Shown one piece after another: positions 3,443 to 58,665 of a DNA stretch of 64,000 bases (within the stretch, counting starts at the first letter, position 1; every line of letters starts with the position of its first letter). This stretch comes from Amoebidium appalachense (Eukaryota; Protista; Ichthyosporea), in the NCBI GenBank assembly GCA_963693365.1, contig CAVNZM010000019.1, forward strand, positions 71,272 to 135,271. Reading direction: 5' to 3'. Under the pieces are notes generated by a model. That model was not told the DNA's origin. It was given only the letters and a program-made list of their open reading frames with translations, and did not search any database. The position numbers and the translations under genes were made by a program.

Positions 3443-3465
3443 AATGCAGTCCCCCACAAAATGTG

Positions 3466-5067
3466 CTAGGCGAGCATGGCCATGTTCAGGTACCAGCCAC
3501 AGGCAGCGTGCCAGCGCCACACCAGCAGGTTGGTGTCCGTGTAGTCGGCGTTGGTGTACGCCGTTGGCGATACACGCGGCTTGGCGTTCTCGAACACGTC
3601 GGTGCGGATGATGCACGCCCCGTCCCGCCACGTGGTCTTGGCCGGCCACGACGGGGCCGGCTTGAAGTAGTACCCCCGCCCCAGTGCCGGCTTGTACGAG
3701 TAGTCCACGGCCATGAGCGTGACCCCTTTTGCGGCCGCCATGCGCTCGCCCTCCGCCACGATCTCGTCCACGTCCAGGCCCGTGAAGGTAGTCGCCGGTG
3801 ACCACTCACCACCTACAGAACTTGTGCAGACGCCTCGTGGGAGCGTCACGTACCGCCCCTTGGTGGTCTGCGGGACGACGCACACGTACTCCCACGACCC
3901 GTCGTCTGTAAGCGTGATAGCGCCCATGTATTCACACAGGATCGAACCCCCCGGCTCGTACGAGCCGTACGTGAACGTGTCCGTGCGTTCCAGAGAGATG
4001 AGGTACAGGGCGCCACGCTCTTGCGCTGCCCGTGGTTTGCCGATGTACAGCGCGCTATTGGGCGGTCCCCCGATCTGCCGCCTGCGCGTTGCAACAAACC
4101 CGGCCTTGGGCACCACATAGAAGAACGTTGTGCTTGAGTAGGACGCCCCACCCAGGGCGTAGTACGCCGTCATCGGGCTTCCGATCGCCGAAATCTTGCA
4201 CGGCACCATGCCGTGTGCTGATGCGCAGAACCCCGCATAGATCGGCCCCAGATTAACATGTACCCCAAACGTCACGGCCCCCGGCGGCGGTCGGCTCGCA
4301 CGCACAAGCGTGTGCGTGGGAAACTCGAGCTCGTTGATGGCCGTCAGCGCGGCGTCGCACCCGGGCGACGGCGTGTTGGTGGTGAGCGTGATGTTGCGCA
4401 CGGCGTGCTCGCACGAGAGCCCGCCCGTGCGTGCGCACAGTGAGAGGATGGTCGCGCGCGTGGGGGCAGGCTGTGTGGGTGTCTGGGTGTGCAGCTGCGT
4501 CCAGCCCGCTCCCTTGTCCAGCAGCACCTGCAGCCCGTTGGTCTTGGCGGCAAACCGCACCATGCACGTCCACCACACCCCGTTGGTGCCGGCTCGGGGG
4601 TACGTGGCTGTGCCCAGCACCGTGGCGCCAAAGTACACCCGCGACTGCGCCTCGTACTCGTCAAACGTCAGCCGGTACGCCCCGGGCTGCAGCAGCTCGT
4701 CTTCCCCCTGGTATCGCTGGCCGGAGTACCGTTGCCCCAAGCTAAACCAGTTGGCCCACAAGGCATCGGCACCGCTGGTCGTGCCGTCGCCGGCCCTGAA
4801 CTGGAAAGCAAGCTGGAAGTTGTCCACGGGTGGCATTACCCACACCACATAGCCGTGCTGGCTGCTCTGCTTGTCCGTCAGCCGGATCTCCCCCCCCGCC
4901 CTGTTCATGTACGCAGTCCCCCCCAGCACGCCCGCCGCCGGCGCCACCCACGCCGTGCCCTGCTGCGTGGCGCTCCACGTTTCGGCGTTCTCAAGCACCA
5001 GCGTCGTCGTGTGCCGCCCTGCCAGCTTGTCGATTCGCGCGTCCAGCGTCGCCAGCCGGTCCGCCAT
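3466..5067 (-). CDS. Lectin-like protein, paralog 2
   Basis: MADRLATLDARI; GGTAYMNRAGGEIRLT...QHGYVVW; shared FFYVVPKAGFVA, VCVVPQ and WRW..GWY motifs. Confidence 0.7.
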   Translation of the reverse strand: MADRLATLDARIDKLAGRHTTTLVLENAETWSATQQGTAWVAPAAGVLGGTAYMNRAGGEIRLTDKQSSQHGYVVWVMPPVDNFQLAFQFRAGDGTTSGADALWANWFSLGQRYSGQRYQGEDELLQPGAYRLTFDEYEAQSRVYFGATVLGTATYPRAGTNGVWWTCMVRFAAKTNGLQVLLDKGAGWTQLHTQTPTQPAPTRATILSLCARTGGLSCEHAVRNITLTTNTPSPGCDAALTAINELEFPTHTLVRASRPPPGAVTFGVHVNLGPIYAGFCASAHGMVPCKISAIGSPMTAYYALGGASYSSTTFFYVVPKAGFVATRRRQIGGPPNSALYIGKPRAAQERGALYLISLERTDTFTYGSYEPGGSILCEYMGAITLTDDGSWEYVCVVPQTTKGRYVTLPRGVCTSSVGGEWSPATTFTGLDVDEIVAEGERMAAAKGVTLMAVDYSYKPALGRGYYFKPAPSWPAKTTWRDGACIIRTDVFENAKPRVSPTAYTNADYTDTNLLVWRWHAACGWYLNMAMLA

Positions 5068-5100
5068 TGCCCACTGCGCACATTTGTTTTGCCCTACTCA

Positions 5101-6729
5101 ATGGCGGACCGCCTCGCCCGCCTCACACAGCGCATCCTCAACATCGAGGGCTCGCCCCCCCGATGTGTGCTCCAGGAGACCCCCGAGAACTGGGCCCGCA
5201 CCAACTGGGCGTGCCCCACCACCGGCACGCTCGGCGGCAGCGCCTACATGAACAGGGCCAATGCCGAGATCCGCCTCACCAACCGCGCCGCCAACCAGAC
5301 CGGCTACGTGTACTGGCCTGTGTGCCCCGGGCAGCGCTTCGTGCTGTCCTTCAAGTTCAGGACCGGCGCCGGGTCCATCCCGCAGAAGGAGGCCCTGTAC
5401 GTGTCGTGGAACCAGGCCAACTCGTTCCCAAACGGAGCCGTCGCCGGCAAGGAGTTCCGCCTGCAGTTCAATCCGGGGTCCGGGAAGGTCGTGTCCTACC
5501 AGCCCAACGGCTCGTTCAACTTCCTGGGATGGCCGGCCAACGGCACCAACGGCGCCTGGCAGACGTGCGTCATAAGCATCGCCCCGGACGCCGGCTACGT
5601 GTTCTGTTCGCTCGGCCGGCTGCGCCTGACATACACACTGGCCGACCTGACCCCCTCATCCACCGCCAGTACCTTTCTCTCGCTGTGCGCCTACACATCC
5701 ACGGCCGACTACACCGAGCACGCCGTCAAGGACATCGAGCTGTGGACGTACGACCTGGGCGTGCCCGGCCGCGACGCCCGCTCGCTCGTGCTCAACGAGA
5801 TCGACGGGCCCGGCTACCGCTGGGTCCGCAGCCCGCGCGTGCCGCCCGGGGCCGTGACGTTTGGGATAATCTACAAGGAGGGTCCTACCTTCGCAGCTTT
5901 GTGCTTCACGTGGGCGCACGGCTCGAAATTTGGAACGGTCCGATGTGTCAATGTTACCACCGGGTCCCTTGCAGGCACGTATGCAGCACCAGGTGTCGCA
6001 GGCATGCCCTCTCTGTACCGCAACATGTTCCAAACGGACAACTTCTTCTACCTTGTCCCCAAGCCGGGCTTTGTCGCCGTTGAGAGGAGGTACCCGAGCT
6101 TCGGATCGGATAGCTGGACCGCCCCACCAGGCGCCCTCTGCACGGAGTCCCTCAGTTGGCTCTCGAACACACCCGTTCCCGCCTATCTTGTCAGCGACGG
6201 GAGAAGCGATTCCTATATTTTCGGAGGCGCCATCAACAACGAGAACATACTATTGGACGTCGGCATGGATGAGATAAGCGTATCGTACGGCCACAAAACA
6301 AAGTTTGTCTGTGTTGTCCCTCAGGCTACAAAGTACAGATACGTGGCACTGCCTTATAATGTGGCAATCAACACCGCAAAAACCAAGCAGTCGGTCAGGG
6401 ATAGTACGGAACCGTTCTGGGACACAAACGAAATGGGGCGCCTCATGGAGGCCGCCAACCCAGGCGTTTCGTGTGCGAAATTTGATTTTACAAGCGACAA
6501 CAATGAACCTCTGGTGTCCTCCTTCTACACGGGCTCCCCGTGGCCCGCACAAACGACTGGCAACTACTACACGGGAAGCATCGTGCGCCTGGACGACCTC
6601 GAGGGCGCAAAGCCAGATGGCACCGTCGACGCGCAGCAGTACAAGGACGTGGACTACTATGACGCCACACGGAACCTGACGTGGCGCTGGTGCGACTGGG
6701 CCGGCTGGTATCTCAACATAAATGCGTGA
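5101..6729 (+). CDS. Lectin-like protein, paralog 3
   Basis: True start ATG 5101 (MADRLARLTQRI); GGSAYMNRANAEIRLT...QTGYVYW; same shared motifs. Confidence 0.7.
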   Translation: MADRLARLTQRILNIEGSPPRCVLQETPENWARTNWACPTTGTLGGSAYMNRANAEIRLTNRAANQTGYVYWPVCPGQRFVLSFKFRTGAGSIPQKEALYVSWNQANSFPNGAVAGKEFRLQFNPGSGKVVSYQPNGSFNFLGWPANGTNGAWQTCVISIAPDAGYVFCSLGRLRLTYTLADLTPSSTASTFLSLCAYTSTADYTEHAVKDIELWTYDLGVPGRDARSLVLNEIDGPGYRWVRSPRVPPGAVTFGIIYKEGPTFAALCFTWAHGSKFGTVRCVNVTTGSLAGTYAAPGVAGMPSLYRNMFQTDNFFYLVPKPGFVAVERRYPSFGSDSWTAPPGALCTESLSWLSNTPVPAYLVSDGRSDSYIFGGAINNENILLDVGMDEISVSYGHKTKFVCVVPQATKYRYVALPYNVAINTAKTKQSVRDSTEPFWDTNEMGRLMEAANPGVSCAKFDFTSDNNEPLVSSFYTGSPWPAQTTGNYYTGSIVRLDDLEGAKPDGTVDAQQYKDVDYYDATRNLTWRWCDWAGWYLNINA

Positions 6730-8499: not shown

Positions 8500-9330
8500 T
8501 CAAAAAAGCAGTGTCGACGCCAGCTCGTTTGAGAACGACTCGCGCTGCCTGAGGTCGCGCTGTGTGCTGATGGACGGGAGGTTGTCCAACCCGGCGCTGT
8601 GGATCGCTGGGTCGGGTCGTAGCTGAAGGTTGCCGTTCTTCTTGTACACGGCGGGTGCCGCCACGTTGCGGGGACGTGTCGTGGCGGCAAGCACCTCCTG
8701 CGGCGTCAGCTTCGCCACGCTCAGCCTCTCACGCGGCCGCATCTCGCTGCCCGTGAAGAGGCCCGTGCCCCGGATCTGTGAGATCGCGTCCATGGTGGAG
8801 TTGCTGACGTTTGGCCCTGCCCGATGCACGGTCTGCACAAGGTTGGGGTGCACAGCCGGACGTGCGGGCGCGCCGATGAGCGCTGACGGTGTGCCTGAGG
8901 GAACCACCGAAGCCTGCTGCACAGCCCGCGTCGAAGGAGGCGCCTGCGGTACCGTAACTGGCCCGTTGCCCGTGTTGACGACCGTGCCCCCGCCGTCGGC
9001 CGTGGCGTACTCGTCGTAGCCGAGCACGTACTCGTCCTCCTCGTCTCCAAAGTACTCCTGGTTGCCCATGGCGACGGTATCGTCGTCGAACCCCCTAGCA
9101 CTGTCCCGGTATGCAAGTGCCAGGTCTCGGTCAAATGGGCTGTCGGAGGTTTGCAGCCCCCACTGCATGCCAGGGTCGTTGTTGCCTCCGGGCTGTTGCC
9201 CCGGGTCACTGTCCTCAGGCTGGAACGTAGGTGCTGTTGGCCATGCCGACGCCCTCTTGTTGTAGTAGTAGAAGCCAGCTGCGATGATGCCCATGTACAG
9301 CAGCGTGCGGTCCATGGATCCAGAATTCAT
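8500..9330 (-). CDS. Membrane-anchored protein resembling NCLDV minor capsid protein P11
   Basis: N-terminal TM (LLYMGIIAAGFYYY); C-term KKNGNLQLRPDPAI...ST.RDL resembles the N.N.QLR.(D/E)P motif. Confidence 0.5.
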   Translation of the reverse strand: MNSGSMDRTLLYMGIIAAGFYYYNKRASAWPTAPTFQPEDSDPGQQPGGNNDPGMQWGLQTSDSPFDRDLALAYRDSARGFDDDTVAMGNQEYFGDEEDEYVLGYDEYATADGGGTVVNTGNGPVTVPQAPPSTRAVQQASVVPSGTPSALIGAPARPAVHPNLVQTVHRAGPNVSNSTMDAISQIRGTGLFTGSEMRPRERLSVAKLTPQEVLAATTRPRNVAAPAVYKKNGNLQLRPDPAIHSAGLDNLPSISTQRDLRQRESFSNELASTLLF

Positions 9331-10223: not shown

Positions 10224-13200
10224 ATGGACCGGTCCCGTAGACCGGGGTATGTTGTGGTGGACACTCAGTCCAATAAAGTCGTGGCCGATGCCTGGCCAAG
10301 TGCCGAGAATCCTGGCCGCTTCTTTCTAGAATCCCGAGCCGATGACCCTTTCCCCCTCGCACAGCTGGTGCAGGACCCGCGTCACCCGTCATACAACACC
10401 GGCACCGATAGGCAGGCCAGGGATGGCAATCTGAACCTGCGATTCCGTGTCCGTGATCCCATGTACGCACCCGCCCCGCCTACACAAACCCCACCGTCCC
10501 GATCCGAGACCTGGTGGGAGGAGCTTGCAGGCAAGGACCTGACCCAAGAACCCCTCGATGATGCCCGTGTAACTGCCGAGAACGTTCAGGGGATACTGAG
10601 CAAGGCGTATGTTCGCACAAGCACGCCGCGCCTGGTCAAGCTCGAGGGTGTCACGGACTCTAGGGGCCACGCGCTTTTCGCCAAGGAGGTGGAAAATCGG
10701 AAGACACGCCACCCCACGACACCGGACCATCCCGAGCGCATCCGAATGGCGTATGCCGCCCTTGCGGAGGCCCAGCGCATAGCTGGAAAAAACGTAAGGG
10801 ATTCCCAGAAAGCAAAGGAGGGCAAAGCGCCGGAAGACTCCGATGATCCCGGAGAGCCCAACATGCTCGAGGCGCTCGCCCTGATGGTGCCCGGGCTGCC
10901 ACGGCCTGAGTTTGTGGAAGGAGTCCACCGCGAGGACGACGAACGGGCCTACCCCTACAAGCACGCGCTCCAGACACTCATCGCCGAGCGTGCAAAGCTG
11001 GCCAAGGAGCTGCGCGCAGCCGGTACCGATCGTGCGACCATGCGGCAGGCCCTCAAGGAACTGACCATGAGTGTTGCGCGCGACCTTTCAGGGCAGGAGT
11101 ACTACGGCCGTGTCCAGCACATCCTGCGGGCCCTTGCCGATGACCAGGATCTTGACCTTCGAGATGGTAAGCGTATTCACCTCGGGTCACACGCCCCCCC
11201 CGGAGCCACCAGCATCGATGATGAAAGGGAGATGCACAAACGCTTCTACGCCGATCTCGGCCGGCCTGAGCTCTCAGAAACCCGTTTCGATGACGCCCGC
11301 AGCCGTCTTGTTGCCAATGCCGTTTCGACCCGCCGAAGAGCAGAGGCGCCCACACCCACCACTGCCGACTCCACCGCCCAGGAACTTGCCACGGTTGCAC
11401 ATGCGCTGGGCGTGAGCCCGGACAACGCTCGCACGGCCATCGCCGCCTGGGCCGACCGGAAGCGGGAGCAGCTTGCGGGCCTGTACACCGCCGGGAGGCC
11501 CCGGTCGCCGGGCACCGCCGTCAACACAACATCCGACATTACGGACTCGGTGTGCGGGATCGTGTTTGTGGATCCGCACATCTCCAAGCACTTCCGGCCG
11601 ATGACGTACCTGGTCGTCAGGCTCGACCGCTTTGTCCCGCGCGCAATGCTCGTGGCGATGCACGTCATCGAGCACACGGGCAGGCCCGTTGTGTACAAGT
11701 CTAAGGCCACGGTCGCGGGGTTCTACCCACCCCAGCCCGGGGGAAACCCCCCTCTGGCGCTGTACCAGCTGGAGCGCCAGCGGCTGATGCCCTTGGAGTC
11801 CACAGGTGATCTTCTCAACGTCGACGCGCCTGACAGCCCTTCGCCTGTCCGCTCCGTGGTCTATGAACCCCTGCCATCCCGAAGCACCGTGGCATCGAAA
11901 GGCTCCTTCACGCTGAGGCTCCTCCCCGACAACAAGGTCGCCCTGGGGGCAGAGGAGGCCCTGTGGGTGGTGGGCCCCGGGGGCGCCCGCCTGCTGCTGG
12001 TGCCGGGGGGGCGTTGGTACGGGGAGGAACCCCTCGCACAGCCCCTGCCCGCAGACGTCGAAGTGCACACGCTGAGAACTGCCGAACAGCCCGTAGGACG
12101 CCTGGGCCGTGGGAAGGCATACACGCAGGACATCCGCGATGCCATCCTGCTTGCGCACCTGCGGGACGAGAGGCTCACGGACACCGCACAGAGGCTCAAG
12201 GTCAGCACGCAGACCGTGCGGCGGGTAATAGCACGTGCCCTCAAGCACGGCGAGTTCAGCAGCCGGCACGGCACCAACCTCGCAAGGGCCCATGAGAAAT
12301 CCACCAAGCTGACGGACACACAGAAGATCGTGCTCTACGAGCTCACGACCAAGGTACCCAACCTGACCAGCGAGAAGCTCATGGCCGCCTACAACGCACT
12401 GCCTGGCCTGCCCGAATCCGAGCGCATGAACGTGTCGGTGTCCACGCTCAACAAGTGGCGCAAGCGGCTTGGGCTGACGTACCGCCGTGGGGAGGGCGAC
12501 CCGACAAACACCTTTGTAAGGTCCGTGGCTGCCGCCACCCAGTACTTTGAGGTCGAGCGCTTGCCACACCTGCAGGACAACCGCCAGAATCTGCTTTTCA
12601 TCGACGAGGCCTCCGTGTACCTGGATGAGACCCCTGGCCGCGTGTGGGGGCACCGCGGCTCGCATCACAAAACCCCCAAGCCCAAGCTGCGCGGCATCGG
12701 CACAAAGCTGCTGATTTCCGTGGGGTTCCCCAAGGCGGACAACGATGGAAACATGCGGGCCGTGGTCAACTACCTGATTCTCAGTCCTCGGCCATCCGAC
12801 GACCCGCTGTTCAACTACCGGCCTCTCGCCCCCCACGGCCGCGAGCCCCAAGCCGAGCTTTCCAACGAAAGCCTGGTGCCTGACGAGCTTGACGGTCGTG
12901 CGTTCTACGTGTTCTTGGAGTACGTCCTGGGGGCCGACCCACGCACGAACGGCGCAATCCTGTGCATGGACAACGCCCCCGTGCACAACACCAAGGAAAA
13001 CTTGCCGGACATCAGGCAGCTCGCCGTGAGCAAGCATTGGCGCTTCCAGTGGCTCCCCCCCTACAACTCCAAGTACAACGTCGCCGAGTTGGCCATCGGC
13101 TTTGTCAAGCAGCACGTGCGCTCCCACTACCCCAAGACCTACTACCACCTTCGCAAGCTGATCCAGGACGGCTGCTCACTGATCGAGCGGAACCCGGACT

Positions 13201-14636
13201 ACATCGTCAACTGGATGAAGAAGTGCGGCTATGGTCTGCCCATCAACATCACCCGCAACGCCAACATCCGCAAGGACCGCATGGGCTTCTTTGCACCAGA
13301 AGGCACCATCTACACTCGCGTTGTCAAGATCACAAACCCCCAGGACAAACCCCTCAAGTGGCCCGATAACCCGAACTGGCCACGGTCCCAGCTGCGCCGC
13401 CTGCGCAACAGCATACTGGAGAACCCCGCGTGCTTTATCAGCCACGCCGGCGCCCTGTGGCGGCTGACCGAAACGGGACGCACGGCCGTCATCGATGCCC
13501 TCAACAGGGGGCACGCCACCACCGACCTGGCGCGTGCGTACACGCGCACCGCCCCCACCACCGGAGATCCCCGATGGCAGCTGTTCAGCACGGACCCAAA
13601 GGCCTGGCAGCGGAAGGAGCTGGTAGCCACACAGCGTCCTGCCAAGCAGAAGCCTGTGAAGCCCCAGGCCCCAGCCACCCCTGTGCTTCCAGAGGTCCTC
13701 ACGTCCAATCCCGCGGTCCTCCAGGCCGCCCGAGACAGGGCGGATAAAGTGCTGGCGGCCCTCAACGAGAAACTGAAGGCCGAACTGCACGAGAGCATGA
13801 AAGTCCGCGATGATCTGGACCATCTGCGGAGCAAAGCGGGCCGCGTGAGTGCTACGGACAACATAAACCCTATGTTTGCGGCCATATACGACAAGCGTGT
13901 CAGCACAAGAGCAAAAGAAGCCGCGAAGGAGAAGGAAAAGGAAAAGGTCCCCGACCCGCCCCAATCTGCGCCCGACCCGAACCAGGCCATCCACCAGCGC
14001 GAGTACTTGAACCCTCAGGTCCCTATGGACCTGGATTCTTACAACCCCCTGACCCCCGCGAGTTTGGACTCTTACAACCCCATGACCCCCATGAGTTTGG
14101 ACCCGCCGACGCCTGCACCGCCTCCTCGATCTCCCCGGAAGCGTACGCGGTCTGAAGACCAGGATGAGGTCTCCGGCCCGGGCGGTGGGGCCAAGCGGTC
14201 GCGCACTGAGCAGCCCCCGGAAGGTCAAAGCGTTTTGGGTACAGCCTACAGCCAGATGTGGTCTCCAGGGAGAGCTCATCCCGGACCGAGGCGTATCCTG
14301 CCACGGCCCGCAATCCCGCTGCAGCCACTGTCCTTTGTCCCATCCACGAACACGTTGGGTTCGCCCGGGACTCCCTTCCCGCACATGCCATCCCCCGAGC
14401 AGCTCCGGTTTAACACACAGGCGCAGGCAATTTCCGCCAGGCCCCCGCTGAGCCATGCCTACCTGATACCGCCCCCGCCCTCGCCGTTCCCCAACCCGCA
14501 GTCGCAGATGTCCACGCCCGTAAATAATTTCACCTGGCACTATGCCATTCGCCAAGCGCAAGCTCAAACGGTTCGGCCTCCTCCGCCTGACTGGCAACCG
14601 CAACCTCCAGCGCATTTTCAGCGCCGTGATGCGTAA
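10224..14636 (+). CDS. 1470-aa protein containing an IS630/Tc1-mariner-type HTH + DDE transposase/integrase domain
   Basis: HTH (TAQRLKVSTQTVRRVI; VSVSTLNKWRKRLGLTYRR); catalytic FIDEAS, CMDNAPVH, WLPPYNSKYNVAE (DD38E); long unique N-term and Pro-rich C-term. Confidence 0.85.
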   Translation: MDRSRRPGYVVVDTQSNKVVADAWPSAENPGRFFLESRADDPFPLAQLVQDPRHPSYNTGTDRQARDGNLNLRFRVRDPMYAPAPPTQTPPSRSETWWEELAGKDLTQEPLDDARVTAENVQGILSKAYVRTSTPRLVKLEGVTDSRGHALFAKEVENRKTRHPTTPDHPERIRMAYAALAEAQRIAGKNVRDSQKAKEGKAPEDSDDPGEPNMLEALALMVPGLPRPEFVEGVHREDDERAYPYKHALQTLIAERAKLAKELRAAGTDRATMRQALKELTMSVARDLSGQEYYGRVQHILRALADDQDLDLRDGKRIHLGSHAPPGATSIDDEREMHKRFYADLGRPELSETRFDDARSRLVANAVSTRRRAEAPTPTTADSTAQELATVAHALGVSPDNARTAIAAWADRKREQLAGLYTAGRPRSPGTAVNTTSDITDSVCGIVFVDPHISKHFRPMTYLVVRLDRFVPRAMLVAMHVIEHTGRPVVYKSKATVAGFYPPQPGGNPPLALYQLERQRLMPLESTGDLLNVDAPDSPSPVRSVVYEPLPSRSTVASKGSFTLRLLPDNKVALGAEEALWVVGPGGARLLLVPGGRWYGEEPLAQPLPADVEVHTLRTAEQPVGRLGRGKAYTQDIRDAILLAHLRDERLTDTAQRLKVSTQTVRRVIARALKHGEFSSRHGTNLARAHEKSTKLTDTQKIVLYELTTKVPNLTSEKLMAAYNALPGLPESERMNVSVSTLNKWRKRLGLTYRRGEGDPTNTFVRSVAAATQYFEVERLPHLQDNRQNLLFIDEASVYLDETPGRVWGHRGSHHKTPKPKLRGIGTKLLISVGFPKADNDGNMRAVVNYLILSPRPSDDPLFNYRPLAPHGREPQAELSNESLVPDELDGRAFYVFLEYVLGADPRTNGAILCMDNAPVHNTKENLPDIRQLAVSKHWRFQWLPPYNSKYNVAELAIGFVKQHVRSHYPKTYYHLRKLIQDGCSLIERNPDYIVNWMKKCGYGLPINITRNANIRKDRMGFFAPEGTIYTRVVKITNPQDKPLKWPDNPNWPRSQLRRLRNSILENPACFISHAGALWRLTETGRTAVIDALNRGHATTDLARAYTRTAPTTGDPRWQLFSTDPKAWQRKELVATQRPAKQKPVKPQAPATPVLPEVLTSNPAVLQAARDRADKVLAALNEKLKAELHESMKVRDDLDHLRSKAGRVSATDNINPMFAAIYDKRVSTRAKEAAKEKEKEKVPDPPQSAPDPNQAIHQREYLNPQVPMDLDSYNPLTPASLDSYNPMTPMSLDPPTPAPPPRSPRKRTRSEDQDEVSGPGGGAKRSRTEQPPEGQSVLGTAYSQMWSPGRAHPGPRRILPRPAIPLQPLSFVPSTNTLGSPGTPFPHMPSPEQLRFNTQAQAISARPPLSHAYLIPPPPSPFPNPQSQMSTPVNNFTWHYAIRQAQAQTVRPPPPDWQPQPPAHFQRRDA

Positions 14637-23842: not shown

Positions 23843-24379
23843 CTAAAGAAAGATCAATTGCATCTCGGGGTGTGAGACATAAAGACCAACCGGAGCTTCG
23901 GACGGCAGGTTGATGTACCTGTCCATACGGTCGGCAAACCAGCGCGGGGTGTCGGGTGACGGGCTACCGAAGGAGCAGATGCTTTCCTGTACGGGATACC
24001 TGATGAACGGGCCACCGAGCCTTGCCGACATCGTGTTCACCAGGTCCTCCTGACGGCGGATGTCGCTCCACATGTCTACCTCCATTGCAAGGCTGCCGGT
24101 TTCATGAGCACCCTCCCCACAGTATCTGTACTGCTGCCACTCATCCATGGTCTCGGGCGTGCACAGCGGGTACCTCGCGCATGTATCGTCCCGTGTTCCC
24201 ACAATGTTGGCGGGGATGTCCACATACGTCCGTGAGCGAAGCACGTCCCTCGTGTAGCCCTCCCTCTCTGCGGCGTAGAGTCTCATCGACGACATTACAT
24301 AGCGGGCGGATTGCGTGGCTGAAGCGTGAATGTGGGCCACAAATAAATCTCTCGCACCAACATGGAGATACCATGCCAT
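23843..24379 (-). CDS. Hypothetical protein
   Basis: ORF filling the gap between neighbours; start uncertain. Confidence 0.4.
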   Translation of the reverse strand: MAWYLHVGARDLFVAHIHASATQSARYVMSSMRLYAAEREGYTRDVLRSRTYVDIPANIVGTRDDTCARYPLCTPETMDEWQQYRYCGEGAHETGSLAMEVDMWSDIRRQEDLVNTMSARLGGPFIRYPVQESICSFGSPSPDTPRWFADRMDRYINLPSEAPVGLYVSHPEMQLIFL

Positions 24380-25069
24380 GCGCAGAACAACGGCGTGCTG
24401 AACTGCCTGCCCGAGGTGCTACCGTGCTACTACCCCGACACGGCGTTTCCGTCCCCTGACGCGCTTTTGCCCCGGGAAAAGTGCAAGTCCTACAATGCCT
24501 ACACATACCGCCTGCTCAAACGCATGTCTACGCTTGCCATAAACAAACACGCCCTGGACTACCTCAACATGTTCCAGACCGCACTACAGGAAAAGATCGG
24601 CATGTGCATCGTACACATGCTGGGCGACGCACGCCACGTCACCGTCAAGCTCAGGCACGTGGTCGGGGCCGCCCGTGTGTTCCTTTCGGACAGCGTGGTG
24701 CGTGGCATGTTGACGCGCATTCAGGAGAGCCTCGCCCTGTACGAGGACAACAACCTGACTGTCGGCACGCGCACCACCATTACGCGCAGGTGCAAGTTGG
24801 TGTTCCCCCCATCACGATTTCGCAACACCCTTCTCGCTCTTGACCCTACCGTCAAGTGGCGCGTCAGTGTCATCAGTGGCATCGCCTGCGCGTGCATAAT
24901 CCAATCCTTCACCGAGTGCGTCCTAACCGAAGCCCTGGCGCTGTGCCGCAAATCCAACCGCAAGCGCGTCATGACGGAGCACCTGCAGGACGCCTTCTAC
25001 CCCGCGCTCACCGAGACCAGCCGCTTGCTGGAACAGCACATTCACAACCGCACGGTGGCCCCTTTGTAG
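24362..25069 (+). CDS. Histone H2B-H2A doublet
   Basis: H2B-like YTYRLLKR..TLAINKHALDYLNMF...TVKLRHVVGAARVFL, then H2A-like TRRCKLVFPPSRFR...ACIIQSFTECVLTEALALCRKSNRKRVMTEHLQDA. Confidence 0.8.
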   Translation: MEIPCHAQNNGVLNCLPEVLPCYYPDTAFPSPDALLPREKCKSYNAYTYRLLKRMSTLAINKHALDYLNMFQTALQEKIGMCIVHMLGDARHVTVKLRHVVGAARVFLSDSVVRGMLTRIQESLALYEDNNLTVGTRTTITRRCKLVFPPSRFRNTLLALDPTVKWRVSVISGIACACIIQSFTECVLTEALALCRKSNRKRVMTEHLQDAFYPALTETSRLLEQHIHNRTVAPL

Positions 25070-41019: not shown

Positions 41020-42556
41020 CTACATGCAGACACTGGCATCTTGTGTTGATCTGCGGGACCCAGACTGTTTGCGCCCACGGTTACGCCTCCCCCCCGCTGC
41101 CCTAGCCCTTTTCGGCCTGGGGACTACCTCAAGCGTCACACCCTCGACCGTCAGCGGCTTGATGCCCGGAAACTGGCGCTCCATCATGGCACGCAGGTTG
41201 CCGTAACCATGGGTCGCTAGAATGTGTGGCATGTTGTCACCCATCCACATCTCCGTGTTGCTTATGACCGTGAACGCCTGGCGTGCCGTGATCTCCGTGC
41301 AGTAGCGGACAGGCGTGCCCCACGCCTCGGCACGCAGTTTGATGGCGTTCTGGATGGCACCGCGCGCTGTGAGCGTGTTTACAGTGCGCCGGGTGCACGC
41401 CACCAGCACGTCCACGTTGAGCACGCTGTTAGTGAACTCCTGCACCAGCTCAATGGCCCCCTTGGTCTCGCCGTTAAACAGCGCACCGACGATGCTGATG
41501 GGCAGGTTGCTTAGGCGTGCACGGAGGTGCGGGTAGCCGTTGAGCGTGGACTTGTCTGGATCGGTGGGGAGCACGCGTGGGTTGATGGTATTGGGATCGG
41601 AGTCGAACTGCTCCATCAGGGCCTGGTTGACACGGGAGCGCTCAGCGATGGTCTGGTTGGCCTGGGCAATGGTCTGGTTAGCTTGTGCCAGCATGAGGGA
41701 CCTCTCGCGTAGCATGGTGTCCTTCTCGCGCATGGTGGCGTCGTACACGGCGATCTGCTTTTCATAACCATCCTTCACAAGAGCAAGGGCCTGGGCCTGG
41801 CCTTCCTGCATCTCGGTGAAGGTGCGCTTGAGCTCGCGAATGGTGTTGTCCTTCTCCTCGATGATAGGCTTGACGGTGCTGTCGAAGAAGCTGCGCATGG
41901 CATCGAGGAAGCCGTTCGAAGGGTCCGCCCGGGCAGCGCGCACCTCATCCATGTCGATGGCCATCTTGCTGGTGGTGGCCCCGTTGTAGTTGTCGCAGAT
42001 GTCGATGACGTCTGCCAGCACCGTGTAGTCGCCCGTGAACATGCGCGAGAGCAGTGCGTCCGTGTGCACGGCAAAGTCCGTCGAGACGTAGCGGGCAAGC
42101 GCCGGGAACAGCGCGATGTGCACGAAGGTGCCGCGCAGCGCCGGGTCGCCGGTCTTCTTCTTGGCATTCGAATCATCAATGACGTCATCGATGCGCAGTG
42201 GACCAATGGGAGGAATGTTGGGAATTCCCAACTTTCCTTTGATTGGTCCATTGATCTTATCCAGCACCCTACCAACCAAACCAAAATTTGCGCTCTTTCC
42301 ACCAGGTGATTTTTTTCTCGGCCCCATCCCCCGCCTTCTCGGTGTTGTATTCGCGCCCCACGTTGCACAGCATGGTGCCGTTGAAGTAGACGTGCCCGTT
42401 GGGGTAGGTGGTGGTCACGGTCAGCACCTTGCAGCCGAAGTCCATGGCGGGCGGGGCGCGCACCTCCTTGAACGCAGGGTAGGCAGGGGTTGCCGGCTGT
42501 AGGGAGGCAGCGACCACCTCCTCCCTGGGCGCAGCGACGTTCATGTCGAACTCCAT
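41020..42556 (-). CDS. KilA-N domain + coiled-coil protein, copy A (one frameshift near 42280)
   Basis: NGHVYFNGTMLC...RGTFVHIALFPALARYVSTDFAV; ORFs 42269-42556 and 41020-42327 join. Confidence 0.75.
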
Positions 42557-43156: not shown

Positions 43157-44595
43157 CTACATGCTTTGTTTCTCTGCCTCTGCGCACTGCGCACGTCTGT
43201 CGAATTTCTTGGGCACAGCAGTGCGCCTCACACGTCTAGTACGTGGTTTGGGGACGAGCTCAAGCTCTTCCTCTATGTCTAGGGGCTTGATGCCCGGAAA
43301 CTCCTTCTCAAACAGAACCCTAGTACGGTAGAAACTGCACGTCTGGCTGATCTCGGGCATCTTCTCGGCAAACCATGCCTCCGTGTTGTACACCACCGTG
43401 TAGGCCATCCGTGCGGTGATCTCGGTGCAGTACTTCACCTTGCGGCCCCACGAGGCCCCCGCTCGCAGCTTGATGGCGCCCGCCAGCACCGACCTCGCCA
43501 TCACCGTGTTCACGCTGTCCTCGACGACGTGTCCCAGCACCTGTACGTTGAGTATCCCCTCGACAAACTGCTGGTACAGAGTGGTCGGGCCCACCGTGCT
43601 GCCCTTGAACAGTGCCGCCACGATGCTGTTGCCGAGGTTGAGCAGGCGCACGCGCAGGTGGGGGTACCCGTCCAGCGTGCAGCCGTCGGGGCTGCTGGGC
43701 AACACGCGCTTGTTGAGGGTGTTGGGGTCGCTCTCGAACTGCTCCATGAGGGCCACGTTGATCTGTGTGGCCTGCTGCAGCATCAGCGTCTTCTGCTTGT
43801 CCAGCTCCTTGTGCTGCATCACCAGCTCCTTGCTCTCACGCACGGCCATGTTCAGCAGGTCGATGGTGAGGTTCTTATCCTTGATGGTGTCGTTCTTCTC
43901 CTTGAGCAGCGGCATGAACTTGCTGTCGAAGAACGACGTCAGCATGCCCAGCATCTGCTCACCCGTGTCCGCCCGGGCCGCACGCACCTCGTCCATGTCG
44001 ATGGCCATCTTGCTGGTGGTGGCCCCGTTGTAGCTGTCGCAGATGTCGATGACATCCGCCAGCACCGTGTAGTCGCCCGTGAACATGCGCGAGAGCAGTG
44101 CGTCCGTGTGCACGGCAAAGTCGGTGGAGACGTAGCGGGCAAGCGCCGGGAACAGCGCGATGTGAACGAAGGTGCCGCGCAGCGCCGGGTCGCCGGTCTT
44201 CTTCTTGGCATTGGTGGTGTCGATGACGTCATCGATGCGCAGTTGACCAATGGGAGGAAAGTCATTTCAAGCCCTTTCCTCTGATTGGCTGTTTGTTGAT
44301 CTTGTCGACGATGTTAAACCAGTGTTACCTCTGCTCCAAATCGACACCTTCTTCTCGCGCACCCATCCCCCGCCTTCTCGGTGTTGTACTCGCGCCCCAC
44401 GTTGCACAGCATGGTGCCGTTGAAGTAGACGTGCCCGTTGGGGTAGGTGGTGGTCACGGTCAGCACCCTGTCGCCGAAGTCCATGGCGGGCGGGGCGCGC
44501 ACCTCCTTGAACGCGGGGTAGGCAGGGGTTGCCGGGTGTGGGGAGGCAGCGACCACCTCGTCCTTGGGCGCAGCGACGTTCATGTCGAACTCCAT
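43157..44595 (-). CDS. KilA-N domain + coiled-coil protein, copy B (several frameshifts at 44265-44360)
   Basis: Tandem paralog of copy A, with near-identical KilA-N flanks and promoter. Confidence 0.7.
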
Positions 44596-46358: not shown

Positions 46359-47602
46359 TTAGGCCATAAACTTGTCCAGGGTGGTCTGTGCGTACTTGTC
46401 CAGCTGGTCACCAAACACAAGCTCCAGCTCGGCCTTCTGCACCAGGCAGACGCCCATGCGCGCAAAAACACGAAGCACGGCATAGAGCTGGTTGTAGGTC
46501 AGGTGGGTGACCTTGGGCACACCGTGGAAGGTGTAGGCCGCCTTGCAGAGTGCCGTGTACAGGTTGATGTGCGAGCGGTACACAGCCTGGTCGGGATCCA
46601 CGTTCATGTGCGACTTGATGAGCCAGTTCCAGTAGGCGGGGTCGTACAGGTGCTCGAACCCCTCGTGGGAGCGCCACAGCAGCACGGCAGCGTCGTGGAA
46701 CACCTTGCGCGCCAGCTCCCGCCCGTAGTCCGTCTCCATGCAGCGGCTGTTGGGCGAGGTGCCGGGGGGCAGGGACACGATGCGCTGGGGGTGGTTGTCG
46801 TCGCCCTCGTAGATGGCAAGGCGCTCGTTGGCAGAGTCCAGCAGCTCGGCCGTCTCCGTGTACCACTGCTCGACCTTCTCGAGGCGCGCCTCAGCAGCAG
46901 CGGTGGTTGCACTCAGAGCAGCTATGGCGGCCTCCTTCTGAGCTGCGGACAAACGAGCGAATGCCTCGGTAACGTCAAAGGCCCAGTCACGGACAGTGTG
47001 GCCCAGCAGGGTACTTGTTGATGCAGACGCCATGCGGAAGCCCTTGGGTGTCAGCTTGTGGTCAAGTGGTGCCGCTCCACCAGTCTTGGGTGTCTGCATG
47101 CCAATTGTGTGTCAGTACGCATACCCAGGGCACCTATAATATGTAGGAAAGCAAGTCTGCGCTTGTGACGTCATTATGACGTAGGCGGCATGATGCCGCC
47201 TACGTCATAACAGGAAAAATGACGTCATTATGACGTATCTCAGGCTCTCAAGATGTCGAGCTAGCAGAACAACTCAACCACACCAAAATAGAAACTCACC
47301 TCCAGTTGTGCAATGAAAAAATTCCCTTCAGTAACATAGCGTGGCACCCCGTTGCGGCCCTTGAACATGGCGCGTACAAAGTCCTTGTAGTTGTCATATC
47401 CCAGCAACTTGTGCACGGCGCGCCCTGAGATGGTCTCGTCGCTGTCGAACAGGAATGGGTCAAGGAAGCGCAACATCTTTGCTACCACATCGTCCCCCAC
47501 GGTGCCCAGCAGCTGCTCAAGCTCGGGGGAGATGGGGGGGAAACCGGCCTCGCGGGCGCCAGCAATGTTGAGGCGCTCGTAGATGGCATAGGTGGAAGCC
47601 AT
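46359..47602 (-). CDS. AntA/MSV199-like DNA-binding protein, copy 1, two exons (47602-47300, 47093-46359)
   Basis: Exon 1 ISGRAVHKLLGYDNYKDFVRAM; exon 2 GGAAPLDHKLTPKGFRMAS..T.LGHTVRDWAFDV. Confidence 0.7.
47094..47299 (-). other. Spliceosomal intron, 206 nt, phase 0
   Basis: GAG|GTGAGT donor, TACTGAC branch point, GCAG acceptor; same position as the intron in the paralog. Confidence 0.85.
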
Positions 47603-48978: not shown

Positions 48979-49230
48979 TTACTCATTCAAGCTAAACCCC
49001 CCCTCTCCGCCCCGCCCCGCTGGAACTTTATCACGACCCCTGAACATGGCGCGCACAAACTCGTTGTAGTTGCCATACCCCAACAGCCCAAAAATGGCGC
49101 GCCCAGAGATGGTCTCGGTGTTGTCATGCAGAAAGGGGTCCAGAAAGCGCAGCATCTTAGCAACCACATCGTCCCTTACAGTGCCCAGCAGCTGCTCAAG
49201 CTCGGGGGTGATGGGGGGGGGGAACCGGCC
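48979..49230 (-). pseudogene. Truncated third copy of exon 1 of the AntA-like gene
   Basis: PELEQLLGTVRDDVVAKMLRFLDPFL...; 5' end replaced by (TG)n, no exon 2. Confidence 0.75.
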
Positions 49231-49249
49231 TTGTGTGTGTGCGTGTGTG

Positions 49250-50070
49250 TGTGTGTGTGCATAGCGCTAGAGTTGTGTAGCGCTGAAAGCGAATTATGAA
49301 GGCGCTCCCATCAGTGAGTTGGGTTGCACTCACCGACTATCCAATCAAATCACTGCAATGACTTCATCGGCAATTTCATTATTCAAACTGTCGGGATGCG
49401 CGCGATTTGATTGGTGAGTTGATGAGTTGCTACAGAAACCGACTTTTCATACCCCACACACCACACACACATACATCTATATATATCATACACATATACA
49501 TACAAGCGTACATATTTTTATACATATGTATACTTATATACACATATATTTATATATATATATACATTTCTTTGTATTCTAATTTTTATTTGTATACACT
49601 GACCTTTTCATATTCTTCTAACCTTCTTCCAAAAGGATCATGTAGTGATACTACATCGGATGACTGGGTTGCTATACTTGGAAGACTACTTCAATGTTCA
49701 TTTAATATAAATATATAAATAAATATTTACAAAAGTGAAGTTCATATGTCTTTTATTTGATTTTAATATATATATATATATTTATATTTATATAGATACC
49801 TACATATGCAAGAATGATACTGTAACATACGTATACATGTAGGTGCATGGTGTGTGGTGTGTGGGGTATGGAAAGTCGGTTTCTGTAGCAACTCATCAAC
49901 TCACCAATCAAATCGCGCGCATCCCGACAGTTTGAATAATGAAATTGCCGATGAAGTCATTGCAGTGATTTGATTGGATAGTCGGTGAGTGCAACCCAAC
50001 TCACTGATGGGAGCGCCTTCATAATTCGCTTTCAGCGCTACACAACTCTAGCGCTATGCACACACACACA
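49250..50070. repeat. Long inverted repeat (~220-bp arms) around an AT-rich ~380-bp spacer
   Basis: 49250-49468 is the near-perfect reverse complement of 49850-50070. Confidence 0.92.
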
Positions 50071-50123
50071 CACACACCACACACACACACACACACACTA
50101 TTTGTAAGAATAAACACTGATGC

Positions 50124-52513: not shown

Positions 52514-52576
<63 letters not shown>

Positions 52577-52988
52577 ATACTGATGATAGCGCTATTATAA
52601 ATTAGAATTGAAAAGTTGGCACTTTGGAGTTACAGGGGTTGTGACGGGTGTGTGAGCACCGTAAAACGGCGCTTCATTGGGTGTAGAAGGAGGGGGTGGA
52701 ATGCAGCATTCGATTGGAGAGGAGAATGGCATGCAGCATATGTGTAGAAAGTGCATGTAGCGCCGAACAAATCGACCCAATCATCTGGGACCAGTATTCT
52801 CTTGCAATCCTCTCCAATCGAATGCTGGATTCCATTCCTCTCCTCCTACAACCAATGAAGCGTACAACCAATGAAGCGCCGGACGCCCCCTATATAAACA
52901 CAGCAAGCGCTGGACAGCCAGCACCTTTACGGTACACACACAACACACAACCCCCAAACCCAAAGCCCCAACTCTTCCACCAGTGACC

Positions 52989-55057
52989 ATGGCTTCCACC
53001 TACGCCATCTACGAGCGCCTCAACATTGCCGGTGCCAAAGAGGCCGGCTTCCCTCCCATCTCCCCCGAGCTCGAGCGCCTGCTGGGCACCGTGGGCGACG
53101 ACGTGGTGGTCAAGGTGCTGCGCTTCCTCGACCCGTTCCTGCTGGACAGCACCGAGACCATCTCCGGGCGCGCCGTGTTCCGCCTGCTGGGGTACGGCAG
53201 CTACAACGAGTTTGTGAGAGCCATGTTCAAGGGGCGGAATGGGTCGCCTGGTTTTGTCCCGGCTGGAAGCTACCGTGTTGTTGAGATGGAGGTATGAACA
53301 TCCCCTCTGATGCAAGTGCAACCGTTGCTAGTAGGTCGAGCTTGTTTTTAGATGAGGTTGTCAAAATAGTTGATACCTGCATTGGATCACAATATCCTGG
53401 TTCTACAGTCACAGCCACATTGTGTTCCATGAGAGACTCTATGACAAACGAGTAGAACGAGTTGGTGCTTTACCAAACAAGTGGACGCGTTTACGATGAC
53501 CAGGGTAGTACTTCCCATAGACTAGGATCTGTCCGAGAGCATGTTTCCATGAGCGGACATGTTTCACTTCGATTACATCACTATCTGTCAACAAGTCTAT
53601 TTCTCCAGCAGGCACTGTTCTTTTCACGCCCCCTTCCCTTTTCTGTAGATTTGCACATACCTTCCTCTCTGACTGCTCCTTTCCGAGTGTCTGTTCGAGC
53701 CTTTTAGCCAGTTTGCTGTAAGCACGATCAGTTAGAAAAAACGATTTGCCTGGCATGCCCCTGCTGCCTGTGCGTACTCTTGTAACTCTGTAATCTACAT
53801 TCTCTGCCCAGCCCAGTCGTCTTATGGTCCGTATTATATTCTCAGTCATTCTATTTCTTGAGAGCCCATACTTGCGCGCTATGGTATCCGCGCTCATTTG
53901 AATACTCACCATACTCTTTGTATAGAAAAAATCGGTGACTTCACAATGACGTATCATAATGACGTCACAGCCACACGGGCTGACACGCGTCATAATGACG
54001 TCACAGCCACACGGGCTGACACGGATTAACTGCCCCCTCCCCCCCCTCCAACACAGACTCCCAAGTCCGGTGGTTCAGCCCCCATCGACCACCACATGAC
54101 GCCCAAAGGTTTTCGCATGGCGTCATCTTCTACCAACACTCTGTTGGGCCACACTGTGCGCCTGTGGGCCTTTGATGTTGCCGAGGCCTTTGCCCGTCTG
54201 GCTGTCAACCGCAAGGACGAGGCCGTTGCTGCCCTGCGCGCCACCCTTGCTGCGGCCGAAGCCCGTGCTGCCGAGGCTGCCGCCGAGCGCAACCAGGCCA
54301 TGGGCGAGAAAGACGGCTGCCGTTGGAGGCCGCCCAGGCCGAGGCACTCGCCACCCTCGCTGCCGCTCTCGCCCGCGTGAAGCTCGAACCACTCACCCTC
54401 CCGACCCGCATGCCTCTCACAACCGGCGGCACGTACACGGACAACCATAAGTTCAAGCGCCTGACGCGCGCGTTCGCGTATGTGTGCGTGGACACGCTGT
54501 ACGGCGAAGGCGTGCGCTGCGCCAGCACGTACACGGGCATGATCATGGCCACCACGGGCGTGTGCTTTGTGTTCCAGTCGGGGGAGATTTCCAACATCAT
54601 CGCCACCACCGGGCTGCAGAAGGCCATGAAGGAGCGCATCCGGCTGTGGACCGGCGAGGAGCCCAAGTACTCGACCGACATGACCACGCAGCAGCTGTAC
54701 ACCTTTGTCTACAACTACACGCGCTGGTACGTCGAGTACTGCAAGGCGCCGGTGCTGCGCCAGTCGACCATCAACAACGCGGACACGGGCGCTGCCGAGT
54801 ACGAGGTGCACGTCGAGCTGGCGTCGTGGCTGGAGGCCATCCAGGACAAGTTCCCCGACATCGAGCCGCTGGAGCTCGGGCGCACCGTCAGCCTCAACGA
54901 GCCCCTGGTGGAGCGCGGCGAGCAGCTCAAGGGGCAGACCCAGCTGGACGTGTATGTGCAGCGCGGGCGGCTGGGGCGGAAGCGCAAGGTCGCCCGCCTG
55001 CAGAAGCCCGAGGGCCCCGTTGATGTTGTGGTGATTGCGGACAGTGATAGTGAGTGA
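52989..55057 (+). CDS. AntA/MSV199-like DNA-binding protein, copy 2, two exons (52989-53291, 54057-55057; frameshift near 54320)
   Basis: Exon 1 is 303 nt as in copy 1; exon 2 starts TPKSGGSAPIDHHMTPKGFRMAS. Confidence 0.7.
53292..54056 (+). other. Spliceosomal intron, 765 nt, phase 0, containing a nested antisense gene
   Basis: GAG|GTATGA donor, GCTGAC/ATTAAC branch candidates, C-rich tract, ACACAG acceptor. Confidence 0.8.
53439..53912 (-). CDS. Intron-nested protein: AntA-like DNA-binding N-term + PD-(D/E)xK nuclease domain
   Basis: ENVDY...RGMPGKSFFLT, then PAGEIDLLTDSDVIEVK...WKHALGQILVYG.YYP..KRVHLF; may continue by frameshift into ORF 53430-53227. Confidence 0.8.
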   Translation of the reverse strand: MVSIQMSADTIARKYGLSRNRMTENIIRTIRRLGWAENVDYRVTRVRTGSRGMPGKSFFLTDRAYSKLAKRLEQTLGKEQSERKVCANLQKREGGVKRTVPAGEIDLLTDSDVIEVKHVRSWKHALGQILVYGKYYPGHRKRVHLFGKAPTRSTRLS

Positions 55058-56154: not shown

Positions 56155-56927
56155 CAGAGCGCTGACATAGGATCGACACACACTCAGAGCGCTGAGATAG
56201 GATCGTCGTTTATGACGTCATTATGACGTCACCCACTGTCGGCAACGTTGGTGCTGTGGCGCCCTGGACCCAGCATGTGGCTCACAAGGGGGTGAGGCTA
56301 GCTCCTTCATGACTCGTGGTCATGTTGGCAAGATTAGGAAAGGATGGTAGGTTCAACTGTATCTGCATGAAATTATGTGGGAACATGTATGTCTGTATAT
56401 ATGGGAAATAAACAATAAAAATCATGATAACATAGTGGGTTCATATGTGAAGCGCGAATTTACTGGATATCGAACTTGTGCTCTTTGGCTTAAGACTTCA
56501 GTGAACATTCTATTCATATCTGATTGGTTAATTGTGATTGGTTGTCTGCGATTGGTCGAGCATCGATTTCAAAGAAGCCCTTGGTGATGAAATGTTTGAT
56601 GGGTAAAAGGTTGTGTTTAACTCGATTAAATCAAAGAAGGTTAAACCATCCGAGAAACTGTAGGTACTACGTCAATGTTTTGATGTTGCATTTGTAAACA
56701 TTGAGTGCATGAGGGGCTCAGAAACATCCTGAGTCCTTTTGCACTACTCTGGGACTAAGATTACCAAAAAGCCAATCCAGCGTGGCTGCCAATAGAATCC
56801 ACTCAAATAACAAAGTCTGACATCCAATCATATGTCGCGAAATTGCCAAGCAAGTATATAAGGTCACATCCACTCGGCCGATGCCATTGCATTCTACAAA
56901 CACAGATACTCAAGCAACACAGGCAAA

Positions 56928-57669
56928 ATGTACACGACACATGGCGCTGCGCCTGTCTCATACAGCACCTTCACGTTTCCACCCACCCCACAACCCGACC
57001 TGGGTATCATACACAGTACCGACTTCGTTCCGCTGACCGCCGACGATTTTTCTGCTTTTGACAACCAACTAGGTGATGGCTCCATGCTCTATGCCCCCAC
57101 CCCGACGACAGCCACGAGCCACGGCCAGAACCACGTCTTCGACTTCGACATGGTCTGCGGCGAGACAATCCCCCTCTCCCCGGCGGCGCGTCCTGTTCCC
57201 ACACATCTGCATCTGCAAGCGGTCGCCACTCAAGCCCCCACGCTACCACCCACCACAACCACGCCAGCCACAACATGGTTTGACCAGCTCGGGTCTGCCG
57301 AGAACCACGATTCTGACACGAGACAATCAAAGCGCCCGCGCGCTAACATTTCAATGACCAGAAAGCCACCTGGTGAAATCAAAGCGATTGCCACAGCTAG
57401 TGATTGGAGGCGCCATCTTGCACCCCAGCCCGTTTCGCAGCTGTTGAAACAGGCGTTCGACAGACTTCACCCGCTGTGCTTTGTACCGTTCGTCAACTGC
57501 ACGCTCCCGTATGCCGCGAGCAGGGACAACCTCTTCTACCTGGACGCTGGTAGTATCTGTGCGCTTCTCGGCTACAGGGACATCAATGAGATCCGGGACC
57601 GTCTGGACCAGGCCAAAATCGCCAACGTCGTCGGCGGTGTGCCAAGCACAGACCCGGTAGGCAGCCCCC

Positions 57670-57700
<31 letters not shown>

Positions 57701-58665
57701 ACACACACGCACACACACGCACACACACGCACACACAAAAAGCTAATTGTTGCTCGGCACATTATCAACACCCCTACTAAATGGTGGATCCGGGCACCAT
57801 AGTGGCCGTGGCGGCGGTAGCTTTTTGCGTGGGTATGTTCTTTCTCAGTATCCTTGACTATCTCTTTCCCGTGTTCTCGGATCCGAAGGGTGACCCACCC
57901 CCACCATACTCAATCCATGCTGATCTTTGATGATCCCTACAGGGTACCCCACACTACTGCAAAAAGGGTAACATCATACTGGTCTCGCCGGCTGCGTTTC
58001 TTCACCTGACCACCCAGGTCTTGTACGAGTCCCCCCTGGCCCTCGATTTTCTGGGGTGGTTTAACAGCGCCCGCAGCAAGGCGCTGCACTTGCACGAAAC
58101 CCGGCTCTACGAGAAGACCCGTGGCGCGCGCCCTTCCACCACCCCTCTGGATGCCACCCGCCACATTCGCGCTACCTTTGTCGGTTTCCTGGTGGCCACA
58201 CTCAGCTCGACATCCGTGCTTGACGTCCACAGCCTGGTGACCATCCTTGAAAAGGTGGCCAATGTGCAAGTCACTTCACGCTTCAAGACCCGCAACATCT
58301 GCGCCCCGCACGCCGAGGCGCTGGTTTTCAAGGTGCTTGCCCAGCGCATCAATATAGACACGGGCGTTTCGATAACGTCTGCGCTCGACATCAACACGTT
58401 GCACCTCTACACGTTTCTCTCGCGCGCCCTGGAGGCTCTGGACGTTGACGTGCACCATCCACACGGCGTCCCAGCCAGCAGCACCTTCATGGACCCCCAG
58501 CTGCGCGACCTGGGGAAGCTGGGTCGGTCCCTGGAGAAGGCCTTTGCCGGCATACAGCAGTTGCCCATGGAGCCCAAGTCCTTCTTCTATGCCATGCAGG
58601 AGCGCCCGGACACCCCGGCCGGACACGAAGAGTGTGCATGCTTCAGGATGGATCGGAGTCTTTAG
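56928..58665 (+). CDS. BRO-N domain protein, two exons (56928-57656, 57943-58665)
   Basis: FYLDAGSICALLGYRDINEIR...STDP|GTPHY...ILVSPAAFLHL...SPLALDFLGWF; TATATAA at about 56856. Confidence 0.7.
57657..57942 (+). other. Spliceosomal intron, 286 nt, phase 0, containing (CA)n and a nested micro-ORF
   Basis: CCG|GTAGGC donor, GCTGAT branch candidate, CCCTACAG acceptor; restores the BRO-N frame. Confidence 0.7.
57781..57930 (+). CDS. Intron-nested 49-aa microprotein with TM helix and PPxY motif
   Basis: MVDPGTIVAVAAVAFCVGMFFLSILDYLFPVFSDPKGDPPPPYSIHADL; upstream ATTATC...CCCCTACTAA-ATG. Confidence 0.55.
   Translation: MVDPGTIVAVAAVAFCVGMFFLSILDYLFPVFSDPKGDPPPPYSIHADL

Follow-up and report, generated by a model that had tools for sequence, protein, structure and literature searches.

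A candidate spliceosomal homing intron with an antisense NucS-like nuclease gene in a Nucleocytoviricota-like element

In this work, we analysed a 765-nt GT-AG intron that carries, antisense to its host gene, a gene for a predicted PD-(D/E)xK nuclease, the latter occupying 81% of the intron. Our leading reading, which we hold tentatively, is that this filled intron is a spliceosomal homing intron (shintron) outside mirusviruses, with cleavage and homing as the candidate functions of its nuclease. The original prediction had offered two options, a selfish homing intron or a safe harbour for a cargo gene; the intron, the antisense gene and the nuclease fold withstood the analysis, and homing became the preferred option, a safe harbour being the less probable one. 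The window (the whole stretch of DNA analysed, 64 kb) contains the following features of the locus, given with their coordinates and strand.

52570..52988, plus strand: region upstream of the host gene; contains CCAAT repeats, has a TATA box near 52891 and closely resembles its counterpart in copy 1
52989..53291, plus strand: exon 1 of the host gene (copy 2), 303 nt, 101 aa, no Pfam match
53292..54056, plus strand: intron of copy 2, 765 nt, phase 0, GT-AG
53439..53912, minus strand: nested nuclease ORF as in the window, 157 aa, helical N-terminal domain and PD-(D/E)xK domain
53227..53462, minus strand: remainder of the nuclease, read in the homologous frame: its final helix and strand, followed by a tail across the 5′ splice site into exon 1
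53920..53929, minus strand: TTTTCTATAC motif, 8 nt before the nuclease ATG
53941..54020, no strand assigned: TCATAATGACGTCA motif block, a 36-nt tandem repeat common to the copy-1 intron and 56213-56231
54057..55057, plus strand: exon 2 of the host gene; the window's copy carries a frameshift near 54311-54325
47300..47602, minus strand: exon 1 of the paralog (copy 1), 303 nt, ATG at 47602
47094..47299, minus strand: intron of copy 1, 206 nt, GT-AG, phase 0, nuclease-less, with two motif copies
46359..47093, minus strand: exon 2 of the paralog (copy 1), 244 aa, open
49021..49231, minus strand: third exon-1 copy, truncated

The two paralogs were found as predicted, each with a 303-nt exon 1 ending in GAG|GT and an exon 2 starting with TPK(S/T)GG, and so were their phase-0 introns of 765 nt (53292-54056) and 206 nt (47299-47094). 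The exon-1 proteins of copies 1 and 2 are 76% identical. The copy-2 intron bears a GTATGA donor, CTGAC and TTAAC branch-like sites, a C-rich tract and an ACAG acceptor; the host frame contains 12 stops in this intron and 6 in the 206-nt one. Exon 1 presumably represents the first half of a Bro-N/AntA-like DNA-binding domain, and the C-terminal part of exon 2 is related to the tail of the KilA-N gene 43157-44086. Sequence searches in Pfam, PHROGs and PDB gave no name for the host exons or the nested nuclease, and relatives of the host gene were absent from the viral contigs and metagenomes searched and, on weak evidence, from longer proteins; a metagenome match (L064) spanned 10 residues and was dismissed as due to chance. 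The host gene is an accessory gene and no conserved core gene. A variable zone (53243-53291) adjoins the intron site: paralog identity drops to 40% over the last 30 nt of exon 1, and several other paralog types in the sequencing runs diverge at 53242-53243.

Part of the locus is contained in 20 public sequencing runs from three organisms, none of them on record as RNA. Seven runs (X2, X3, X4, X14, X18, X19 and X23) were compared as contigs; X23, whose library is guessed to be RNA, gave no contig over the stretch. The locus is multi-copy and variable across the runs. Host exon 2 has an unbroken frame in the X14 and X3 contigs, which are 5 letters shorter there and encode a 432-aa protein; in the break region, the first of two gaps is present in all of the X2 depth, and X18 and X4 differ otherwise. 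These alleles bear on the view that there is no intron at all and that the two exons and the nuclease are genes of their own or the remains of a decaying integrated virus. The frameshifts in several genes of the window, its many repeats and the lack of runs on record as RNA would suit such a view, but the frameshifts are missing from other alleles, the paralog keeps the same borders, exon 2 has no ATG at its start, and an exact GT..AG join exists in frame, which makes it very improbable. Two further candidates were rejected. A group I or II intron is out, as the 765-nt intron has no Rfam group I/II match at E <= 0.1 and no stable fold (folding z 0.26; 11 of 20 shuffles fold equally well). An introner is out too, within the window searched: the intron has no terminal inverted repeat, and the D5 and 56928 introns share nothing with it.

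The nested ORF had been placed at 53912-53439 with the motif ID...IEVK...GQ..Y. The motif is there, but the end of the ORF had to be revised: a frameshift near 53456-53463 truncates the nuclease in the window, whereas its homologous frame runs on to 53227. Homologs have a median of 45 residues beyond the A-x-G-Q motif (present in 144 of 156) vs. 29 in the window ORF, and the absent helix and strand are found in another frame of the window. Relatives of the nuclease number 1547 among 50%-clusters at E <= 0.001. Among 139 aligned sequences, E82, E115 and K117 do not vary at all, and D106, Q128 and Y132 hardly do; the nested nuclease has an alpha-beta-beta-beta-alpha-beta core with all of the motifs E, D, E-x-K and Q-x-x-x-Y, and eight of the 139 members show a weak NCBIfam match to NucS. 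The predicted structure of the window nuclease (pLDDT 82.7) has NucS (2vld) as its best fold match, with a middling Z of 7.0 and an rmsd of 2.6 over 70 residues, followed mostly by restriction-fold nucleases covering residues 79-150. A domain-only homolog was modelled at pLDDT 94.8 and matched NucS at probability 0.97 and TM 0.60; for both the full model and the domain-only homolog, Foldseek gave no match at E <= 0.001 against the PDB. Eight viral Foldseek matches were obtained, five of them named KilA-N or N-domain proteins of giant viruses. The PD-(D/E)xK fold expected of the nested ORF is thus borne out at the level of models, with NucS as the best match, and the gene encodes a predicted NucS-like PD-(D/E)xK nuclease in which motifs I-IV are kept. 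Its GC3 of 0.43, vs. 0.84-0.92 in the host exons, is as expected of a newcomer. The link between its N-terminal domain and host exon 1 was insignificant (E 0.02-0.07), and close relatives of the nuclease were found neither in viral contigs (single-sequence search) nor in GenBank phages.

Upstream of the nuclease ATG, the TTTTCTATAC motif has 4 occurrences in the window vs. 0.07 expected, for a motif picked after the fact, and lies within 45 nt of 3 of the 44 gene starts examined. The genes at 9330 and 23785, with which it had been said to be shared, had been described as core genes, which is not supported, neither having a Pfam match. The CGTCATAATGACGTCA motif, a block of which is common to both introns, has 5 matches in the window vs. 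0.01 expected. The TCATAATGACGTCA block is the likely promoter of the nuclease gene. A third TCATAATGACGTCA site, at 56213-56231, lies outside any intron and adjoins a CA tract.

The genes in the window form a Nucleocytoviricota-like set. Among them are PCNA (E 1.7e-19), an A32-type packaging ATPase (Pfam E 0.0014) whose close homologs carry the name Poxvirus A32 protein, and an H2B-H2A histone doublet at 24362-25069 on the plus strand (E 5e-6 vs. fused H2B-H2A chains), along with DNA ligase, polysaccharide lyase 14, C5 methylase, D5-type helicase, KilA-N and T5orf172 genes. The A32 ATPase had no relative in the viral contigs searched, and a literature search returned no paper on this type of element. 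TATA boxes lie 34-99 nt upstream in 10 of the 44 gene starts examined. Two more phase-0 GT-AG introns were recognised, one of 205 nt in the D5-type helicase gene (39574-39778), the removal of which restores the LCNE|VTYG motif, and one of 286 nt (57657-57942) in the gene at 56928. We infer that the genes of the element are transcribed and spliced in a host nucleus.

Several other traits of the element were observed. The gene at 56928 has a weak Bro-N match (E 0.13), and its intron contains a CA repeat as well as a short ORF in sense orientation, in which a hydrophobic stretch and a PPPY motif were seen. The 1470-aa ORF 10224-14636 (plus strand) holds an in-frame HTH and a DDE_3 (IS630/Tc1-mariner-type) transposase domain at residues ~640-970; as variant copies abound in the runs, this ORF may encode the integrase of a giant-virus-like element present in multiple copies. 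The tandem KilA-N genes 41020-42556 and 43157-44595 (minus strand) are 88% identical in DNA over 1126 nt, and each appears to be frameshifted close to a run of A and has a coding-region palindrome with TGACGTCA. An imperfect inverted repeat of ~850 nt at 49232-50087, with an AT-rich centre and CA tracts on either side, is possibly an origin or a terminal hairpin. Three neighbouring related genes at 1058-6729 (794, 533 and 542 aa) likely encode fibre or attachment proteins; a weak lectin-like match was obtained for one of them.

The alleles in the runs show the nuclease in intact and broken forms. In X14 and X18, one extra letter at 53462-53463 restores the nuclease frame; on the window's letters, the restored protein has 228 aa, and 21 of its codons are antisense to exon 1. 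The alignment offsets suggest that contigs of X2, X3 and X4 carry the same restored frame. Conversely, the deepest X2 contig (depth 265.5 of 572.8 at that place) lacks 7 letters and the second X18 contig lacks 2, both being out of frame. Between the nuclease domains of the X14-type allele and the window there are 26 changes, of which 19 fall at third positions (p 4e-5), and dN/dS is 0.10-0.20, which points to purifying selection on the nuclease. In the X18 allele, 7 of the 15 listed nuclease changes (15 of 18 in all) are synonymous.

The junction 53291/54057 had been singled out for a check. The exact GT..AG join of 53291 to 54057 is present in two of the seven runs, X18 and X19, whose listing as 'DNA?' is a guess of library type. 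The X18 join comes in two forms (last codon GAG or AAG) with sides of 27 and depths of 15.2 and 15.3, close to the depth of the filled X18 allele, 13.7. The X19 join is one 154-nt contig with sides of 67 and 86, 2 mismatches and one letter at the joint. In both runs the join is in frame, and its flanks are 98% identical to the filled copy. No exon-exon join was seen in X2, X3, X4 and X14. Whether the join is an intron-less DNA allele or cDNA is a nearly even choice. On the DNA side, X14, a sister run of the same study and size, looks like DNA: it shows an upstream depth of 36.7 and a copy-1-type exon contig at 37.8; it also appears to retain the copy-1 intron. On the RNA side, cover is missing from X18 at 53901-54044, immediately upstream of the nuclease gene, and from X19 over the intron, and the end of one X19 contig, 61 nt ahead of the ATG, is about where the start would be expected; coverage holes in run contigs prove nothing by themselves. 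X18 and X19 are about one quarter the size of X3. Either way the intron borders are right: RNA would show splicing, and DNA the homing target.

A 12-nt direct repeat lies at 53408-53419, 53964-53975 and 54000-54011 (17 of 5000 shuffles). The nuclease part corresponds to the 556 nt between the first two copies. When these are removed, the filled intron is left with 209 nt, which align end to end with the 206-nt copy-1 intron (0 of 1000 shuffles), vs. 778 of 1000 shuffles in the control with the D5 intron; the match is driven by the motif block, the 5′ part alone giving p 0.2. Local alignment of the copy-1 and copy-2 introns gave 3 of 1000 shuffles. On this comparison, the copy-1 intron is a nuclease-less relative of the filled one, either by loss or by never having been filled; described as empty in the original prediction, it is too diverged to be a current homing target. 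The intron may be older than the nuclease, as a 76%-identical paralog has one at the same position and the two look homologous.

The same repeat raises the alternative that the mobile unit is the 556-nt nuclease cassette, which would cut and fill empty introns, the intron itself being immobile. Bordering of the cassette by the direct repeat, the end of the X14 allele alignment at 53422, the repeat edge, and the presence of filled and empty introns at one position are in line with this alternative. We nevertheless consider it improbable: the sole empty intron seen is too diverged for a recent target, a joint skipping only the cassette was absent from the seven runs, and the left repeat copy encodes the nuclease's own conserved last strand, on which ground a plain target-site duplication was rejected.

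Outside this element, the nuclease family usually lives free. It is encoded in 63 viral loci, many of whose contigs are phages, and none of the 63 showed the nuclease inside a recognisable split gene. Flanking ORFs matching one Pfam family on both sides were found in 0 of 63 loci; 80 flanks of non-redundant loci were scanned, many with no Pfam match, so that sense-strand nesting could escape. Both flanks are on the opposite strand in only two loci (L020 and L045), where they do not belong to one Pfam family. The neighbours include RusA, terminase parts, PCNA, major capsid protein and KilA-N genes. The relatives, among them KilA-N/HTH plus PD-(D/E)xK genes of giant viruses and phages, share the same nuclease domain at up to 57% identity and vary in their DNA-binding N-terminus, which is KilA-N in 21 of 139. 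Unlike the free-standing relatives fetched, the nested nuclease sits in an intron and extends ~57 residues beyond the usual end. As ordinary ORFs flank the relatives, the family is usually free-standing, and the intron is a recruited home. The family is mobile, though its members are not known as homing enzymes.

The intergenic setting of the family in the loci fetched lends weight to the second option of the original prediction, that a free-standing viral nuclease landed in an intron of ~209 nt and has been kept there for a viral function, or is drifting, with no homing; the joined contigs would then be spliced RNA or a rare intron loss. The sizes of the element's other introns (205, 206 and 286 nt), close to the remnant that aligns with copy 1, the X18 and X19 coverage, which is compatible with RNA, and a purifying selection compatible with any function agree with this option. 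Three different frameshifts among the alleles, one of them in the deepest X2 contig, speak against a needed function; the anatomy is that of a shintron, and the two X18 joins of equal depth, near that of the filled allele, fit single DNA copies. We regard this safe harbour as possible but rather unlikely.

According to the homing interpretation that we prefer, a 556-nt piece with the nuclease would have been inserted into an older intron of ~205-210 nt. The host spliceosome would remove the intron, so that the insert costs the host gene little, and the antisense placement would keep the nuclease off the host mRNA, its own transcription starting from a promoter in the last 144 nt of the intron. 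The nuclease would cut those co-infecting or co-integrated copies of the host gene that lack the intron, close to where the two exons meet, and the intron would be brought in when the cut is repaired. Once all copies are filled, the nuclease would decay by frameshifts and then be deleted, as in copy 1. Counted for homing are the shintron anatomy, the kept motifs, the selection, the coexistence of intact and broken alleles, the exact join and the other GT-AG introns of the window, one of which restores a D5 helicase motif. Counted against it are the join runs, which may be RNA and are two of seven, the accessory host gene, the free-standing relatives in 63 viral loci and the middling fold match (Z 7); moreover, a nuclease domain this small may be unable to read a long target. 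The fuller claim that the whole homing cycle (intron-less, intact, dead-nuclease and nuclease-less introns) segregates among the copies, driven by a NucS-like nuclease from a free-standing viral family, is doubtful, if conceivable.

How spliceosomal introns are gained is a long-standing question. Homing endonuclease genes in group I introns, among them that of the PD-(D/E)xK enzyme I-Ssp6803I, invade, decay and are lost (the Goddard-Burt cycle). The locus described here shares with the homing genes of group I introns the intron-sheltered nuclease and, in the homing interpretation, the cycle of invasion, decay and loss, and differs from them in having no self-splicing structure. If homing is true, the locus would provide a defined enzyme and target with which spliceosomal intron homing could be tested directly, and a viral nuclease family that is widespread (1547 clusters at E <= 0.001) would be given a selfish role.

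The closest counterpart was described for mirusviruses, in which nuclease-bearing GT-AG introns were already known: 334 nuclease genes were found in mirusvirus spliceosomal introns, named shintrons, 15 of them PD-(D/E)XK, one of four classes (PMC12768974). According to the same source, 64.1% of shintrons reside in morphogenesis genes, and homing was inferred rather than demonstrated. In one part of its table, the introns measure ~470-1050 nt, their ORFs often cross the 5′ splice site, and the nuclease is on the opposite strand in 52 of the 52 rows with a gene id. The five PDDEXK rows encode 345-563 aa, all in MCP. A literature search returned nuclease-bearing spliceosomal introns of viruses only from this source. 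The locus has in common with shintrons a GT-AG intron without group I/II structure, an antisense nuclease able to cross the splice site, and unrelated or diverged introns at one site. In contrast to shintrons, it belongs to a Nucleocytoviricota-like element (A32 ATPase, PCNA and H2B-H2A in the 64-kb window) and interrupts an accessory gene, its nuclease has ~170-230 aa vs. 345-563 aa in the five PDDEXK rows, and its intact, broken, emptied and joined forms coexist. Among nucleocytoviruses, the punuivirus, an endogenous giant virus of Chlamydomonas, has host-type GT-AG introns that average 176 nt, much as here, and end in C-rich 3′ sequences; the words 'homing' and 'nested' are absent from the main text of that report (bioRxiv 10.64898/2026.10.09.758095). 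The C-rich acceptor of the present intron is like those described there for Chlamydomonas and its virus, and a green alga as the host would be a guess. Shintrons, known from environmental mirusvirus genomes, offer a candidate homing route for intron gain, and the present locus supplies a short candidate enzyme, a likely target and decayed states in another virus realm, with homing directly assayable. The design is already known from mirusviruses; what differs here is the virus group, the target gene, the nuclease size and the series of alleles.
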